From positions 1-34,595 of the forward strand of contig CAYNHV010000013.1 of assembly GCA_964397315.1 (NCBI GenBank): DNA of 34,595 nt, in the 5' to 3' direction. This stretch comes from an uncultured Methanosarcinales archaeon. GTDB lineage: Archaea > Nanobdellota > Nanobdellia > Woesearchaeales > UBA12501. Made by a program: the position numbers. Numbering within the stretch: position 1 is the first letter of the stretch; the number at the start of each line of letters is the position of its first letter. This document shows positions 24,001 to 30,000 of the stretch, piece by piece.

Positions 24001-27000
24001 AAGACAACGCTGATATTCACGAACACCAGGGCTGCGACAGAGAGGGTAGTGCACCACCTCAAGGAAAAATTCCCAAAGAACTACACTGAGAACATAGGCG
24101 CCCACCACGGCAGCCTGAGCAAGGAGATGAGGTTTGACATTGAGGAAAGGCTGAGGAAGGGAGAGCTCAAGGCGGTTGTGTCAAGCACGTCTCTTGAGCT
24201 AGGCATAGACATAGGATTTATTGATCTTGTTATACTCCTTGGAAGCCCTAAGAGTGTTGCAAGAGCCCTCCAGAGGATAGGCAGGTCAGGACACCGGATA
24301 CACGAGACAACAAAAGGCAGGATAATAGTGCTGGACAGGGACGACCTTGTTGAGTGCTCTGTCCTTCTGAAGTCAGCAATAGAGCGTAGGATAGACAGGG
24401 TGCACATACCCACCAACTGCCTTGATGTCCTGACCCAGCACGTGCACGGCATTGCGCTGAGCCAGAAGAGCTCCACAAAGGACCTCATGTCAATTATAAA
24501 GAGATCCTACTGCTACAGGGACATAAAGAGGAAGGATGTCATGGATGTTGTTGAATACCTTGCCGGAAGGTTTGTCTCGCTTGAGGACAGGAACATATAC
24601 GCAAAGATATGGTATGATGAGGAGTCAGGCATGGTGGGAAAGAAGGGCAGGATGAGCAGGGTTATACACATGACAAACATAGGCACCATACCCGACGAGA
24701 CTTCTGTAAAGGTAAAGATAGGCGACAGGGTGATAGGGACTCTTGAAGAGGCATTCCTTGAGAAGCTCAGGAGAGGGGACGTGTTTGTCCTTGGAGGAAG
24801 CGTGTATGAATTCCTCTACAGCAGGGGCATGACTGCCCAGGTGAGGGCATCCCCTGACAGGCCCCCCACAGTTCCCTCCTGGTTCTCTGAGATGCTGCCC
24901 CTCAGCTTTGACCTTGCGATGGAGATAGGGAGGTTCAGGAGGCTCATGGAAGAGAGAATAAGCTCTGGAAAGAGCAGGGAGGAGGTTCTTGAATTCATAA
25001 ATTCCTTCCTTTATGTTGACATGAAAGGCGCAAACGCGATATACACCTACTTCAGGGAGCAGTATGATTACGCTGGCCGGATTCCCCATGACAGGAAGAT
25101 ACTCATAGAGCACTACACTGACGAGAATAACAGGAAATATGCTGTTTTCCACACCATCTTCGGAAGGAGAGTGAATGACTGCCTGAGCAGGGCGGTTGCG
25201 TTTGCAATAAGCAGGACGCAGCACCGGGATGTTGATATTGGAGTAAGTGACAACGGCTTTTACATAGGCTCTTCAAAGCACATAAAAGTGGCCTCTGCTT
25301 TCAGGCTGCTGAAGCCAAAGGAGTTTGACAGGGTGATGAAGAATGCCATTGAGAAGACTGAAGTGCTCAAGAGAAGGTTCAGGCACTGCGCAGGAAGAGC
25401 TTTGATGATACTCAGGACCTACGCAGGAAGGAAAAAGAGGGTGGGAAGGCAGCAGGTCAACTCCATGATACTCATGAATGCAGTAAGGAGAATAGACCCT
25501 GACTTCTTCATACTGAAGGAGGCGAGAAGGGAGGTGCTTGAGGACCTGATGGACATAGACAGCGCGAGAAGGATCCTCACCAGAATATCCAACAGGGACA
25601 CGATTGAGGAGATAACAACAACAATACCCTCCCCTTTTGCTTTCAATCTTGTGCTGCAGGGAAGGGCTGACATGATGAGAATGGAGGACAAGACAGAGTT
25701 CCTCAGGAGGATGCACAAGATGGTGCAGGCAAAGATAGGTCTGAATAAATGACAAGATTTTTATACATTTCTGGAATAATTTAATAGGGGGGCATATTGG
25801 AAAGAAAAAAGACAAGGGCTGTCCGGATAGACAATTTGAATATTGGGGGCAATAACAAAATAGCTGTGCAGTCAATGTGTAACACACGCACTAAGGATAT
25901 TAATGCAACTGTCAAGCAGATACTTGAATTAGAGAAAGCTGGCTGTGACATTGTGAGGGTTGCTGTTCCTGACAAAGAATCTGTTTCTGCCCTCCCAAAG
26001 ATAAGAAGGAGAATAAGCATGCCTCTTGTTGCAGATATACATTTTGATTACAGGCTTGCAATTGAATCAGCAAGATTTGCGGATAAGATAAGAATCAACC
26101 CAGGGAATATAGGGGGCAAGGAAAAATTCAAAGATGTTCTGAAGGCTGCAAAAGAAAACTCTATTGCAGTGAGGATAGGCATCAACAGCGGATCGCTTGA
26201 GAAAGATATTGAAAAAAAATATGGAAGGACCGCCAAGGCGGTTGTAGAATCTGCCTCAAATGCATTAAAAATTGCGGAGAATTTTGGATTTGAGAACATA
26301 GTTGTTTCTCTTAAATCATCAGATGTGAAGAGCACAATAGATGCTTATAGGGTGTTCTCAGAGAGATTTGATTATCCGCTCCATGTTGGTGTGACAGAAG
26401 CAGGGCCTCTTCCAATCGGCGCTGTAAAGTCTTCTATTGGCATTGGAACCTTGCTTGCAGAAGGCATTGGTGATACAATAAGGGTCTCCCTGACTGAAAA
26501 CCCTGTTGAAGAGGTGAATGCTGCAAAAGAAATATTGAAAAGCCTTCGGTTGATGAAAGGAAGAGTATTTGTTTCCTGCCCAACATGCGGAAGAACCAAC
26601 CCAAAAGTCATTAGGATAGCAAAAGAGATTGAGAGAAAAACAAGGGGAATTGAAAAAGAGATCAAGATAGCTGTGATGGGTTGTGAGGTGAACGGCCCAG
26701 GAGAGGCAAAGGATGCTGATATTGGCATTGCCTTTTCAAAGGACAGGGTGTTTTTGTTCAAGAAAGGGAATGTAATAAAGGTTGTTGATGAAAAAGATGC
26801 TGTTTCTGCTGTTATGGAGGAGACCGGGAATATTTAAGATTTGTCCCAGATTGAAAATACACTGTTATGCTCATATACCTCTTCTCCACCGCAGATGACA
26901 GAGGTTATGTATTGCTCAATGGATTTCAGAGCAAGATGCTTTGATATTTTCCCTGCTTCGTCATATTTATCATAGCAAAAAGGCGAACCGGAATGTATGA

Positions 27001-30000
27001 ATGCCCCTCCTTGCTTTAGAAAATGGAGGATCTGTTTTATGCTTGATTCATCAGTAAATCCATTTGGAGGGAAAAGCGCCATTACAATATCAAAAGGCTC
27101 TTCAAAAGGGAGGCCCCCCCTGTAATCTGCAAAAACATCTGGTTTTGAGGGGTATCTGCCAGTCCCATAACATTCACCAGTATCCACCCCCCTATATTTT
27201 GCCTTGAATTCTGGTCTCCTGAGTATCCTTCTTGGAAAGGCTTCTCCACACCCTAAATCAAGCACTGTTCTATTAGCAAATAATCCTTGATATTCATAGA
27301 AAAAAGGCTCTATCTCTGATATCATAATAATCTCATGGTGTCTCTTGCTGCCTTCCATTACCTTTTTCTCAAGCCTTACCTCGGTTTCTATTATTTTCAT
27401 ACAGGCGGGCGCATATACTAAATATATAAACTTTACTATTTTTTAGTGATTAATTAAGATTAGGAAAAATTTTATATCAGCTAGAAAACATCTGGAAATA
27501 AAGAGTAAAATGAGAATAATGCTTGCAAAAAACATGGGAATGTGCTTCGGCGTAAAAAGAGCTCTTGAGATTGCAGAAAGGGCTCTGGAAAGGAACAAAG
27601 GGAAAAAAATCCACACCTATGGTCCATTGGTACACAACAAAGAGGTTATAAGTGGGCTTGAAAAAAAGGGTGCAAAGATTGCAGGCTCTGTTGGTGATGT
27701 TGAAAAGGGTGCTGTTCTTATAATAAGGGCCCATGGGGTATCTGACAAGGATATAGGAAAGGCAAAGGAAAAGGGAATTGAGGTTGTAGATGCGACATGC
27801 CCTTTTGTTGCAAAAGCAAAACAGGCTGCACAAGACATGGAAAAAGAAGACTTTAAGGTTGTTATCTTGGGTCAAAAAGAGCATCCAGAGGTTATAGGCA
27901 TTGCAGAGAGCCTTTCTGATCCGGTCATAGTAACAGATGCAGAAGATGTTAAGAATCTTGCAGGCAATAAGGAGTGTAATAAACTTGGTCTTATCTCCCA
28001 GACGACCCAGTCCGAGAAAGTATTCAATGATGTTGTTAAAGAATTTAAAAAACTGGACAATGGTGCAAGGATAGAAAAAACAATCTGCAGTGCAACATCA
28101 GAAAGGCAGGAATCTGCAAAAGAGACAGCTAAAAAATCTGATATCATGATTGTTGTTGGTGGTAAAAACTCTGCAAACACAAAAAAGCTCGTGGAAATCT
28201 GCTCAGGAATAACTGAAACAAAACATATTGAGAATGTATCTGGACTGGAAAAAGCATGGTTTGATGGAAAAGAGGCTGTTGGTATAACAGCTGGCGCCTC
28301 AACACCTGGCTGGATAATTGACGATGTTGTCAGGACTATTGAAAAGACACAGTAAATGCAGATATAATTGATATGGGGCACTCATTAACATGGAAATCCT
28401 AAAAGGCATCAACATAATCGACCTTGGCCTGCAGATCGGAGAAACACTAATCATCGCAGACCTTCACATAGGTTACGAGGAGGCTCTCAACAAGCAGGGA
28501 GTGATGGTTCCCAGGTTCCAGCTTGAGGATGTTCTGGCCAGGCTGGATAAGATCATAAAAAAGGCAAACCCCAAGACAATAGTGGTCAATGGCGACATCA
28601 AGCACGAGTTCGGAAGGATATCTGAGCAGGAGTGGAGGGAGACACTCCGGGTTATTGATTTCCTTCTGGAAAGATCAAAAAAGCTTGTTCTGGTGAAAGG
28701 CAATCATGACACTGTCCTGGGGCCCATAGCAGAGAAGAGGGGTGTTGAGGTAAGGGAAGAGTATGAAATAAGGGAAAAGGGGGTTCTCATAATACACGGC
28801 CACAAAATGGTCAGCATTCCTGCGCGTGTAAAGACAATAATAATAGGCCATGAGCACCCTGCTGTCTCTTTGAGGGATGGCGCCAGGGCAGAGACCTTCA
28901 AGTGCTTTCTCAGGGGGAAGTATGACCGAAAGAACCTGATAGCCATGCCCTCCTTCAACCTGGTTGCAGAGGGCACAGACGCGCTCAAGGAAGAGCTTCT
29001 CAGCCCCTTTCTCCAGCAGGATATCACCTGCTTTGAGGTGTTTGTGATAAGCGACAGGGCATATGATTTCGGAAAGCTCAGGAACCTGCTTTAACACAAC
29101 ACTTTGATGCGACAGAAAGACTTATTAACCACTCTTTCTGAATGGGTTCTATGGGTTACAGGATTCTGATGGTTGAGAAGACTGAAGAGGAGTATGAGGG
29201 AGACCATTCAGCGCTTGAATCCTATGCTGAGACAATGTCCGACATTCTCAGAGTCAAGGGAGGCCACCACGTGAGTGTTTGCTGGGGGCTGGAGAACATC
29301 ACTGAAGATGCATACAGCTCTTTTGACTGTGTTCTTATCCACCCCACAAGCGAGCAGGCCAGAAGGCTGAAAGAATTAAGGGAAAGGTATCCTGGGGTTG
29401 GCTGTGTCCTGACTCCGGGCTCTGACGCGTCCCACAATTTTGGATGCGACGGGAGGGACATACATGGAACATACATGGTGTCAAAGCCTTACAAGCTGGC
29501 TAAACTAATGGAAACCATTGATTCTGCAGTTTCAGAGGCAAGAGAGCGCGGAGAAGAGAGAAGAAATAATGCTGGGTAAGAAGATTTAGTTTTTTTTATT
29601 CCAGGGTGACGCACTGGTAATTTGTGAACCTGCATCCTGTCACCCCATACACCTCTCTGCAGTTTATGGCGCAGGTGGCTTTCCTTGCTGTAAGCGGAAC
29701 ATTCTTTACAGGATAACAGTTGCAGTCGCACGGGCTCAGGAAACACTTGTCATCCCCTGATGGTGTTATCTCAAGGCTTTTCAGGGAGTCCCCGCCTGAG
29801 TCCCCACCTGATGCGGTTGTGTCTTCTGCAGGCGCGCTTCCAGAAGAGCCAGCGCTGCCTGTCTCCACTGTTTGTGTGTCCTCACTGCAGCCTGCAAGCA
29901 GAAGAATCGTAAGTGCCAGCGCTGAAAGCAAGGCAATCATTGTGTGGGTTTTCATAAGAACAAAAGAAACCTCTTTCTTTTTAAATATTGCCTTTCTTCC

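Follow-up and report, generated by a model that had tools for sequence, protein, structure and literature searches.

In this work, we describe a genome of the archaeal order Woesearchaeales (G000; 1.47 Mb, 61 contigs, 93% complete) which carries the two terminal enzymes of the bacterial-type MEP pathway, IspG and IspH, and in which none of the five upstream genes was found. Both genes are located, 0.7 kb apart, in the window, i.e. the whole uninterrupted 34.6-kb contig analysed here. The pair is intact, vertically kept and under purifying selection; the evidence supports that it is truly orphan rather than a binning artefact, and that it is tied to prenyl-diphosphate synthesis, as seen from co-occurrence, neighbourhood and gene fusion. 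The explanation we prefer, giving it somewhat less than an even chance, is that these are working terminal enzymes which remained after loss of the five upstream genes, and that MEcPP is most likely supplied by bacteria, either neighbours or hosts. Uptake of MEcPP or HMBPP would be the most economical way to account for such a gene set.

The IspG product gave 477.9 bits against PF04551 (cut-off 32; model positions 1-340 of 343), 455.4 bits against the NCBIfam equivalog NF001540 (cut-off 345) and 408.9 against TIGR00612 (cut-off 280). Its residues 2-345 align with Aquifex IspG (3NOY), with VSCPTCGR and VMGCEVNGPGE placed opposite VACPTCGR and VMGCVVNAIGE; the CPTCGR and GC..N..GE motifs are retained, and we take three Cys and one Glu to be the ligands of the [4Fe-4S] cluster. 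The start codon is preceded by a GGGGGG run. The database gene call for ispG (P0122) begins later and gives 320 aa, while homologues span the longer frame adopted in Table 1. For IspH, the scores were 296.7 bits against PF02401 (cut-off 24.5; model positions 1-267 of 267) and 287.7 against TIGR00216 (cut-off 187.85), and residues 1-278 align with IspH of Aquifex (3DNF) and E. coli. Three Cys motifs (GMCFGV, DATCPFV, TICSAT) are present together with VHN, AHG, HPE(V), SQTT and ASTP as in both reference enzymes; presumably they comprise the three Cys that bind the cluster and the His and Glu conserved at the HMBPP site. Full-length bacterial-type IspG and IspH, as reported in the initial annotation, were thus confirmed at their positions with all curated cut-offs exceeded. 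Judged from sequence, the predicted functions are conversion of MEcPP to HMBPP by IspG and of HMBPP to IPP and DMAPP by IspH.

Table 1. Features of the ispG-ispH locus (positions along the window)
Feature	Position	Strand	Size	Remarks
Lhr-type helicase, conserved left flank	23167..25752	+		DEAD, Helicase_C, WH_Lhr, DEAD_assoc domains
ispG (gcpE), HMBPP synthase by sequence	25797..26837	+	346 aa	TTG start; PF04551, NF001540
X188, small class I SAM-methyltransferase-like ORF, putative	26834..27400	-		between ispG and ispH, opposite strand
ispH (lytB), HMBPP reductase by sequence	27510..28355	+	281 aa	PF02401, TIGR00216
Archaeal SbcD-related metallophosphoesterase (MPE), conserved right flank	28390..29094	+		TIGR00024 199 vs cut-off 115
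Z141, small Cys-rich ORF, context only	29596..30021	-		one hydrophobic N-terminal segment; gene-order conservation

The contig also carries PCNA, TrmB, KaiC and an archaeal phosphoesterase, and the order Lhr-[IspG]-IspH-MPE-Z141-PCNA is repeated in four relatives (G011, G014, G016, G001) and partly in two more (G013, G015). As the neighbours are archaeal and the gene order is common to relatives, the pair is not a contamination. The helicase is 74-78% identical in G011, G014, G016 and G001, where it adjoins the IspH locus; the phosphoesterase (62-68% identity) follows IspH directly in seven family genomes, and beside it tblastn placed matches to Z141 at 40-49% identity in seven family genomes. 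Z141 has one TM-like segment and no match in family-model searches. X188 has no TM-like segment and only weak family matches (PF13847, E 0.002; NF045667, E 0.0035); atlas features place it with methyltransferase clusters (score 0.96), and a distant homologue (21% identity, E 2e-5) occupies the same position and orientation in G011.

In this gene order, IspG shares 68% identity with its G011 counterpart; it belongs to a clade of eight sequences (66-72% identity around the window copy), with Clostridia-type sequences as the nearest; IspH shares 54-60% identity with its counterparts in the same order in G011 and G013-G016. All eight IspH frames of the family are stop-free. The dN/dS ratio (NG86), which is rough with dS saturated, was 0.07 for IspG (G000 vs G011); the 16 pairs that could be computed for IspH gave 0.10-0.30. 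The corresponding ranges for the neighbours were 0.05-0.11 for Lhr, 0.06-0.20 for MPE and 0.05-0.12 for PCNA. IspG has been lost from two genomes of the same genus, G014 and G016, where a 248/262-aa ORF occupies its place; close kin can thus do without it. The existence of relatives with IspH alone, mentioned already in the initial annotation, was verified by reading the whole Lhr-to-IspH interval in G014, G016 and G001.

In profile re-runs of G000 the upstream MEP enzymes, the mevalonate markers, UbiA and PcrB were missing, as had been claimed before, and tblastn agreed for the MEP enzymes and UbiA. DXR gave no PF02670 and no tblastn match, the DXR-like (DRL) alternative lying outside the search; IspF gave no match at E<=1, and IspD only matches of 25.5 and 17.6 bits, under the cut-off of 27. 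The single DXP_synthase_N (PF13292) match is a transketolase (NF004559, 819 bits), to which alone the Woesearchaeal DXS queries matched in G000 (25-27% identity). No GHMP kinase (PF00288) was found in G000, hence no match for IspE or mevalonate kinase. With DXS, DXR, IspDF, IspD, IspE and UbiA of two full clusters from the same order as tblastn queries, nothing was hit in G000 beyond the transketolase and a sugar nucleotidyltransferase. A complete MEP pathway (DXS; DXR; IspD, IspE, IspF) was accordingly not found in this genome, and neither was a mevalonate pathway, for which HMG-CoA reductase (PF00368, no match), GHMP kinase and isopentenyl-phosphate kinase served as markers, with HMG-CoA synthase, thiolase, AcnX and UbiD-type decarboxylase outside the search. 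The four AA_kinase genes of G000 are aspartokinase, ArgB, ProB and PyrH, which leaves none for the last marker. GGGPS and DGGGPS were also not found in G000. IspG is present in one other family genome, G011, in which no IspF, GHMP kinase or HMG-CoA reductase was found and IspD was only sub-cut-off; the DXR search within the family covered G000 and G002. GHMP kinases do occur in relatives, as noted earlier, but the five of 11 examined include none of the mevalonate or IspE type: HddA-type heptose kinases account for four, of which three adjoin heptose-pathway genes, and the fifth is a homoserine kinase.

Consumers of C5 units are present in G000, in agreement with the initial annotation: two PF00348 (IdsA-type) genes, one of which encodes a 754-aa geranylgeranyl-reductase::IdsA fusion, two cis-prenyltransferases (PF01255) and two STT3. 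In this genome ispG and ispH are not adjacent to idsA; the connection is visible in relatives. Within the family, IspH and PF00348 occur in the same eight of 17 genomes, a co-occurrence that amounts to four genera with the genes and seven without, and kin are not independent. In the IspH-only genome G001 (98% complete) the gene immediately upstream of IspH encodes a type 1 IDI (NF002995, 154 vs 127). In G183 (97% complete) both activities are predicted in one 631-aa IspH::IdsA protein, and in that genome no DXR, IspF, IspG or GHMP kinase was found and IspD only below cut-off. Among IdsA-bearing IspH-only genomes, the two genes are fused or at most 5 kb apart in 6 of 14.

In a sample of 201 genomes of the order, an upstream MEP marker was found in 34 (DXR in 33), and IspH without such a marker in 26, about 21 of which are IspH-only. 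Full clusters have the order dxs-ispG-dxr-ispDF-x-ispH-idsA-ubiA or ispG-dxs-dxr-ispD-ispF-ispE-ispH. The genome G026 (97% complete) retains a scar of such a cluster: between intact idsA and ispH there is an ispG'::'ispE deletion, read as an in-frame chimera of IspG 11-90 and IspE 88-169 followed by a shifted IspE tail. In the IspH tree, sequences from IspH-only and IspG+IspH genomes are interspersed with those from full-pathway genomes, and G189 (IspG+IspH) differs from its congener G094 (IspH only) in the same way as G000 does from G014 and G016. We conclude that IspG and IspH of G000 are remnants of the known Woesearchaeal MEP cluster, retained by selection. The earlier suggestion that the pair might be a remnant is correct as to origin, given the G026 scar; remnant and functional are not mutually exclusive, though, and selection has kept these remnants. 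It is plausible, though we would not call it probable, that truncation proceeded stepwise from the top, from the full pathway to IspG+IspH and then to IspH alone, sometimes fused to IdsA, because these archaea tapped MEcPP or HMBPP of bacterial partners. If true, this would be cross-domain salvage of pathway intermediates and would mark lineages living on bacteria rather than archaea.

The preferred scheme would then run as follows. After an ancestral Woesearchaeal MEP cluster had lost five upstream genes, the remaining IspG would convert MEcPP to HMBPP, and IspH would convert the latter to IPP and DMAPP, probably with ferredoxin as electron source; PorD-like and ferredoxin-like ORFs are present in G000. 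The C5 units would feed the two IdsA-type synthases and two cis-prenyltransferases. Their products would be polyprenyl or dolichyl carriers on which the two AglB/STT3 enzymes act in glycosylation, rather than membrane lipids; GGGPS and DGGGPS were not found. MEcPP cannot be made in G000 by any known route, so it would most likely come from other, neighbouring or host, bacteria, through a cell-cell connection or an unfamiliar transporter, and in relatives without IspG the entry point would be HMBPP. Enzyme activities, electron donor, end products and, above all, a source of the substrate outside the cell are what we infer. A survey of locus ORFs by families and TM segments revealed no transporter-like gene, and we know of no uptake system for MEcPP or HMBPP. 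Against uptake also counts that bacterial HMBPP pools are small. In its favour, MEcPP efflux from E. coli is the topic of PMC3487848.

The initial annotation regarded late-MEP salvage as the only route to IPP. An orphan, selected and prenyl-linked pair agrees with salvage, but does not establish it as the sole route. In 41 of the 201 sampled relatives an IdsA-type synthase is present and IspH, IspG, DXR, IspF and HMG-CoA reductase are all absent; a cis-prenyltransferase is encoded in three family genomes that have no IspH. Another C5 supply must therefore exist in the order, either direct IPP/DMAPP uptake or an unfamiliar route, and it may exist in G000 too; IspG and IspH need not be its sole route.

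Alternatively, MEcPP or HMBPP may be made inside the cell by an unfamiliar route, non-homologous to DXS-IspF, so that no salvage takes place. This we consider unlikely. In its favour, selection maintains the terminal enzymes although all five upstream families are absent, the locus has uncharacterized ORFs (X188 with its G011 homologue, the 248/262-aa ORF of G014 and G016), and the same 41 genomes also call for something new. However, neither ORF is common to both groups; G000 and G011 would need one new route to MEcPP, and the IspH-only kin a second one, to HMBPP. Small genomes of reduced symbiont type are less likely to gain a whole new pathway of several steps than to take the compound up, and what is seen in the G026 scar is simple loss with nothing put in its place. 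To a similarly low degree we credit a non-isoprenoid role of IspG and/or IspH, for instance in a different reductive dehydroxylation, in signalling of redox state or stress, or as moonlighting proteins, with IPP taken directly from a host. A bacterial review (PMC13001223) proposes such roles for partial MEP pathways, 7 of 21 IspH-only genomes show no PF00348, and IdsA-bearing relatives do without IspH. On the other hand, the partial pathways treated in that review end at MEcDP and keep the top, not the bottom. The IspH of G000 has unchanged HMBPP-binding and cluster motifs; in relatives, IspH is joined with IdsA in a single polypeptide (G183, IspH-only) or adjoins IDI (G001), and across the family it occurs in the same 8 of 17 genomes as IdsA.

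Decay of still unbroken genes which have no present function is less probable again. Loss of IspG in same-genus relatives, the pseudogenised ispG remnant in G026 and the somewhat low GC of the locus would fit it; the latter (0.401) is the 10th percentile of 2658 equal-size windows, low and not an outlier, and the genome mean is 0.458 by our recalculation, not 0.48 as initially given. Frames and active-site motifs are nevertheless intact in eight family genomes and about 26 order genomes without upstream markers, dN is far below dS as in the flanking housekeeping genes, and eight IspG sequences at 66-72% identity form a clade around the window copy. Least credible, with a very small chance, is that the upstream genes are hidden in the unassembled 7% of the genome. 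At 93% completeness and 61 contigs, a single gap could conceal several genes, as they are clustered in full-pathway relatives; but those clusters place upstream genes between or beside ispG and ispH, and here none was found on the contig. Moreover, none of the seven family genomes searched for IspF has it, 98% and 100% complete ones included, and no IspE-type kinase was seen among the family GHMP matches examined.

Salvage of MEP intermediates, the reading we prefer, is proposed here as a system for which no precedent was found; as far as we know, MEcPP and HMBPP are made by bacteria and plastids only. Among the closest known systems is the bacterial-type MEP cluster that other Woesearchaeota have in complete form (Castelle et al. 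2021, PMC8204110; Huang et al. 2021, PMC8421398), with the same IspG and IspH families, a link to idsA and, in these reports, a Clostridia-type affinity of IspG; GGGPS and DGGGPS are lacking also in the genomes of Huang et al. according to their text. Unlike that cluster, G000 has neither the five upstream genes nor UbiA, and its pair stands between the Lhr helicase and the phosphoesterase. As far as consulted, the two papers make no mention of orphan terminal MEP enzymes, and their supplementary tables may list partial sets. Reduced bacteria with isoprenoid auxotrophy and host scavenging (Rickettsia parkeri, PMC6854040; Mollicutes and others, PMC13001223) are described as similar in having downstream prenyl-transfer enzymes, no de novo C5 pathway and precursors from another cell, but they take host isoprenoids or precursors without IspG or IspH. 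The G000 lineage, in contrast, keeps the last one or two reductive steps, which points to entry at MEcPP or HMBPP and to a MEP-using donor. In Listeria (PMC13001223) a truncated MEP pathway is likewise kept by selection, as a mirror image: there the top is kept down to MEcDP with IspG/IspH missing or defective, here only the bottom. Among DPANN symbionts taking host lipids, Ca. Nanohaloarchaeum antarcticus (PMC11035636) also has no membrane-lipid pathway and relies on another cell; it is reported to obtain finished archaeal lipids from an archaeal host, whereas G000 would use a phosphorylated pathway intermediate.

DNA of the stretch presented here was found in three runs of one study labelled as microbial mat metagenome.

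The window carries complete genes for IspG and IspH, the last two enzymes of the MEP pathway (MEcPP via HMBPP to IPP/DMAPP). The initial annotation was right in calling them orphans, as both give full-length family matches at the positions tabulated below and the upstream families were not found in the genome under study (G000). As enzymes the two are ordinary. Residues 2-345 of IspG align to the Aquifex IspG structure 3NOY with CPTCGR and GC..N..GE kept, and IspH, aligned to Aquifex 3DNF and E. coli IspH, retains the three Cys motifs together with VHN, AHG, HPE, SQTT and ASTP; residues of these motifs presumably have the ligand roles generally assigned to them. 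The public IspG gene call P0122 (320 aa) begins at a later codon than the TTG at 25797 (window 25797-25874); the longer frame is covered by homologues and by the Pfam model, and a GGGGGG run precedes the TTG. The ORF between the two genes, X188, looks, on weak evidence, like a small class I SAM methyltransferase-like protein.

The G000 assembly (1.47 Mb, 61 contigs) is 93% complete. No DXR, HMG-CoA reductase, UbiA or PcrB was found in it, no IspF even at E<=1, and the best IspD matches (25.5 and 17.6 bits) were under the cut-off. The sole DXP_synthase_N match, considered as DXS, is a transketolase (819 bits). GHMP kinases are absent from G000, which therefore has no IspE, mevalonate kinase, phosphomevalonate kinase or decarboxylase of that fold; since its four amino-acid-kinase-fold genes are aspartokinase, ArgB, ProB and PyrH, it also has no isopentenyl-phosphate kinase. 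As an independent check, G000 was searched by tblastn using as queries the full MEP clusters of two other genomes of the order, G091 (dxs-ispG-dxr-ispDF-x-ispH-idsA-ubiA) and G043 (ispG-dxs-dxr-ispD-ispF-ispE-ispH). Only IspG, IspH, the IdsA genes, the transketolase and a sugar nucleotidyltransferase were matched, and the ispG-ispH interval of the window held no dxr or ispDEF remnants at E 1e-3.

Coordinates of the features discussed (window, contig CAYNHV010000013.1; L, loci of G000 and its relatives; C, contigs)
Feature	Location	Strand	Remarks
ispG	window 25797-26837	+	346 aa; PF04551 477.9 bits, nearly whole model; NF001540 (NCBIfam equivalog) 455, cut-off 345
X188	window 26834-27400	opposite to ispG/ispH	188 aa; between ispG and ispH
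ispH	window 27510-28355	+	281 aa; PF02401 296.7 bits; TIGR00216 287.7, cut-off 187.85
Other window genes	window 90-3846; 6246-9553; 18732-20116; 22356-22787		anaerobic ribonucleotide reductase NrdD, its radical-SAM activase, NrdR; 928-aa multi-PAS histidine kinase and response regulators; KaiC-like ATPase beside V4R-domain protein
Geranylgeranyl-reductase::IdsA fusion	G000:C11:26725-28986 (L080 154-2415)		754 aa
IDI-like Nudix gene	G000:C41:4061-4579	-
IS66-family transposase	G000:C41:5652-6977	+
Type 1 IDI	L096 (G001) 3913-4461	+	between Lhr and IspH
ORF in place of IspG	L093 (G014) 2293-3036	-	248 aa
ORF in place of IspG	L094 (G016) 5553-6338	-	262 aa
MEP-cluster scar	L102 (G026:C15) 3725-4509		between intact idsA and intact ispH; G026 97% complete
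IspH::IdsA fusion	L048 (G183:C30) 415-2307	-	631 aa
IspH::IdsA fusion	L110 (G058:C39) 1373-3259	-	629 aa
HAD phosphatase, GHMP kinase and IspH in one frame	L108 (G057:C54) 4305-6608	-	768 aa; idsA directly downstream
AMMECR1 gene	L048 (G183) 3001-3588	-	one gene upstream of IspH::IdsA
AMMECR1 gene	L110 (G058) 3891-4598	-	directly upstream of IspD
AMMECR1 gene	L114 (G131) 974-1501	-	adjoins IspE-like gene

On the consumer side, G000 has two IdsA-type (PF00348) prenyl synthase genes, one of them fused to a geranylgeranyl reductase, two cis-prenyltransferases (one bacterial-type UppS, one divergent) and two STT3/AglB genes. Open frames of 723-827 aa surround the IdsA match in the relatives G001, G011, G013, G014 and G015, and their lengths suggest that the reductase fusion is a conserved feature of the family. 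Electrons could come from a PorD-like subunit or from ferredoxin-like ORFs, both of which are present. The only homologue of IPP isomerase (IDI) in G000 was rejected as such, with 62 bits against the IDI cut-off of 127; its best match is a Nudix hydrolase model (208, cut-off 300). Some 1 kb from this gene, on the same short contig (8.2 kb), is the IS66-family transposase.

Contamination or mis-binning of the pair is ruled out by archaeal flanks and a gene order that recurs in the family. The contig encodes PCNA, TrmB, KaiC, RNase J, an archaeal SbcD-related phosphoesterase (MPE) and Lhr helicase, and tblastn of window proteins against the relatives' loci recovered the order Lhr-[IspG]-IspH-phosphoesterase-Z141-...-PCNA, Z141 being a small Cys-rich ORF; the locus is thus a family inheritance and no artefact of binning. 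As a rule the genes for Lhr helicase and the metallophosphoesterase are direct neighbours. In window 23167-29094 and all the family loci read, they are separated by IspH, with or without IspG, IDI or other ORFs. The G011 locus reads Lhr-IspG-(220-aa ORF, opposite strand)-IspH-MPE, and the ORF separating ispG and ispH there is a distant homologue of X188. G014 and G016, of the genus of G000, have Lhr-(248 or 262-aa ORF)-IspH-MPE without IspG, G001 has Lhr-IDI-IspH-MPE, and in G013 and G015 the contig end adjoins IspH. The 248/262-aa ORF immediately precedes IspH in the same orientation, and its two copies are 37% identical; it gave no family match, and no homologue was found in G000. Low GC had also been pointed out for the locus, and it is indeed below the genome mean (0.401 against 0.458), but this is only the 10th percentile of same-size windows and other window parts are equally low, so that it is unremarkable and does not argue for recent horizontal transfer.

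Among the 17 family genomes (G000 included), IspG is over cut-off in two (G000 and G011), IspH in eight, an IdsA-type synthase in the same eight and HMG-CoA reductase in none; the split into eight and nine genomes corresponds to four and seven genera, and hence to few independent events only. IspF was absent in 7/7 family genomes tested. Cis-prenyltransferases occur in 11 of the 17, three of these without IspH; G002 (rated 100% complete), G005 and G008 have cis-prenyltransferase homologues, yet neither IspH nor an IdsA-type synthase. GHMP kinases of the relatives were considered as mevalonate kinase candidates; the five looked at, out of 11 matches, are all HddA-type sugar kinases or homoserine kinase (ThrB), and three of the four HddA-type kinases adjoin GmhA, HddC or GmhB.

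How such orphans arise can be read in G026, an IspH-bearing genome of the order. After idsA comes a single 155-aa frame in which IspG model positions 11-90 (103 bits) are joined to IspE positions 88-169 (86 bits); a shifted frame then covers IspE positions 166-260, and behind it come an unrelated gene and intact ispH. This shows that a deletion cut out the central part of a full cluster, sparing idsA and ispH. The IspH tree was built from 54 rows; 39 of these represent IspH-bearing genomes (66 in all), namely those with a retrieved locus other than the unpublished G147. In it, rows with IspH only (IspH without IspG or an upstream marker) and with IspG+IspH are dispersed among full-pathway rows, which means that MEP reduction occurred several times. 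The window IspH falls in a clade with G011 and G013-G016 (SH-aLRT 97), with G001 adjacent (91), and G004 of the same family has an IspH of different type. The window IspG groups with G011 and six metagenome sequences (99), and clostridial IspGs are interspersed with Woesearchaeal ones, an intermixing also reported in passages of Huang et al. (PMC8421398). With 22/51 and 18/48 inner branches unresolved in the IspH and IspG trees, respectively, both backbones are poor and do not tell whether the family genes and the full clusters stem from the same transfer. Neither G000 nor G011 has IspF, an IspE-type kinase or IspD; most simply, the upstream genes had already gone when these two split, and IspG has been retained since.

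Across the 201 sampled genomes of the order (G000 included), DXR was found in 33 (32 strong), IspF in 33, IspG over cut-off in 38, IspH over cut-off in 59, PF00348 in 90 and HMG-CoA reductase in 12. An upstream marker (DXR or IspF) is present in 34 genomes; IspH occurs without one in 26, six of which also match IspG. On closer reading the clean IspG+IspH cases are only G000 and G189, plus G011 from the family set. Rejected as such were G057 (which carries IspF and the HAD-GHMP-IspH fusion), G058 (IspD upstream), G131 (an IspE-like gene with 136 bits, cut-off 138.7), G153 (contig-end fragments only, the congener being a full-pathway genome) and G026 (IspG only a scar); G157 has IspF and is not IspH-only. 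About 21/201 genomes are IspH-only, 14 of them with IdsA, and in six of these 14 both genes are fused (G183) or <=5 kb apart (G094, G086, G118, G072, G026). IdsA without DXR, IspF, IspG, IspH and HMG-CoA reductase was seen in 41/201, and 90/201 lack all of DXR, IspG, IspH, HMG-CoA reductase and IdsA. Two of the genomes tallied are unpublished, G147 with a full pathway and G137 with IdsA only, and the conclusions are independent of both.

The orphan state of IspG and IspH is under selection and recurrent across the order. The IspH frame is open in all eight family genomes that have it, and NG86 dN/dS is 0.07 for IspG (G000 against G011) and 0.10-0.30 for IspH, values that fall inside the range for the flanking genes (Lhr 0.05-0.11, MPE 0.06-0.20, PCNA 0.05-0.12, Z141 0.17-0.57); since all pairs are saturated for dS, no more can be read from the ratios than a dN far below dS. 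Without upstream genes, IspH is tied to prenyl synthesis by the type 1 IDI directly upstream of it in G001, by the G183 fusion and by the co-occurrence of IspH and IdsA in the family. G055 and G081 may share the IspH::IdsA fusion, to judge from their open frames of 632 and 660 aa, respectively.

Salvage of bacterial MEcPP/HMBPP had been proposed as the only route to IPP. Most likely, MEcPP from outside the cell would be turned by IspG and IspH via HMBPP into IPP and DMAPP, from which polyprenyl or dolichyl carriers would be built, IspH-only kin beginning at HMBPP; the entry of MEcPP into G000 is the one link that we purely infer. We favour outside MEcPP because one idea covers both truncation grades and because plain gene loss is documented. 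The orphan pair under selection and the prenyl link support the proposal in part; against outside MEcPP, IspG is dispensable in same-genus relatives of G000. The 41 IdsA-only genomes imply another C5 supply in the order, so that 'only route' is too strong. It also counts against outside MEcPP that no uptake route for MEcPP or HMBPP is visible near the locus, and we know of none. Direct contact with a partner cell has been proposed for DPANN in general and would make a transporter unnecessary.

A complete MEP pathway in Woesearchaeota is already described in passages of PMC8204110 and PMC8421398. Partial bacterial MEP pathways (without DXS, ending at MEcDP, or without everything) are covered in sections of the reviews PMC10663253 and PMC13001223, and the sections of PMC11052028 on archaeal mevalonate variants are silent on orphan IspG/IspH and salvage. 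No description of orphan archaeal IspG/IspH or of MEcPP/HMBPP salvage was found in the literature searched; the supplementary tables of PMC8204110 and PMC8421398 may list such gene sets. Salvage, if true, would be a new type of dependency, in which a phosphorylated mid-pathway intermediate is salvaged across domains; it would provide a genomic marker of DPANN archaea dependent on bacteria rather than on archaea, and imply that highly charged diphosphates pass from cell to cell by an unknown means. Without salvage, the C5 source would still need explaining for about 26/201 genomes (IspH under selection, no upstream markers) and for a further 41/201 (IdsA). For in vitro assay and complementation, the orphan enzymes and the naturally occurring IspH::IdsA fusions offer simple, testable material.

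An AMMECR1 / AmmeMemoRadiSam protein A gene lies close to MEP genes in three genomes (G183, G058, G131). No RNA run is among those listed as containing the stretch; three DNA runs are, all from a single study with the label microbial mat metagenome, and one of them is perhaps its source.
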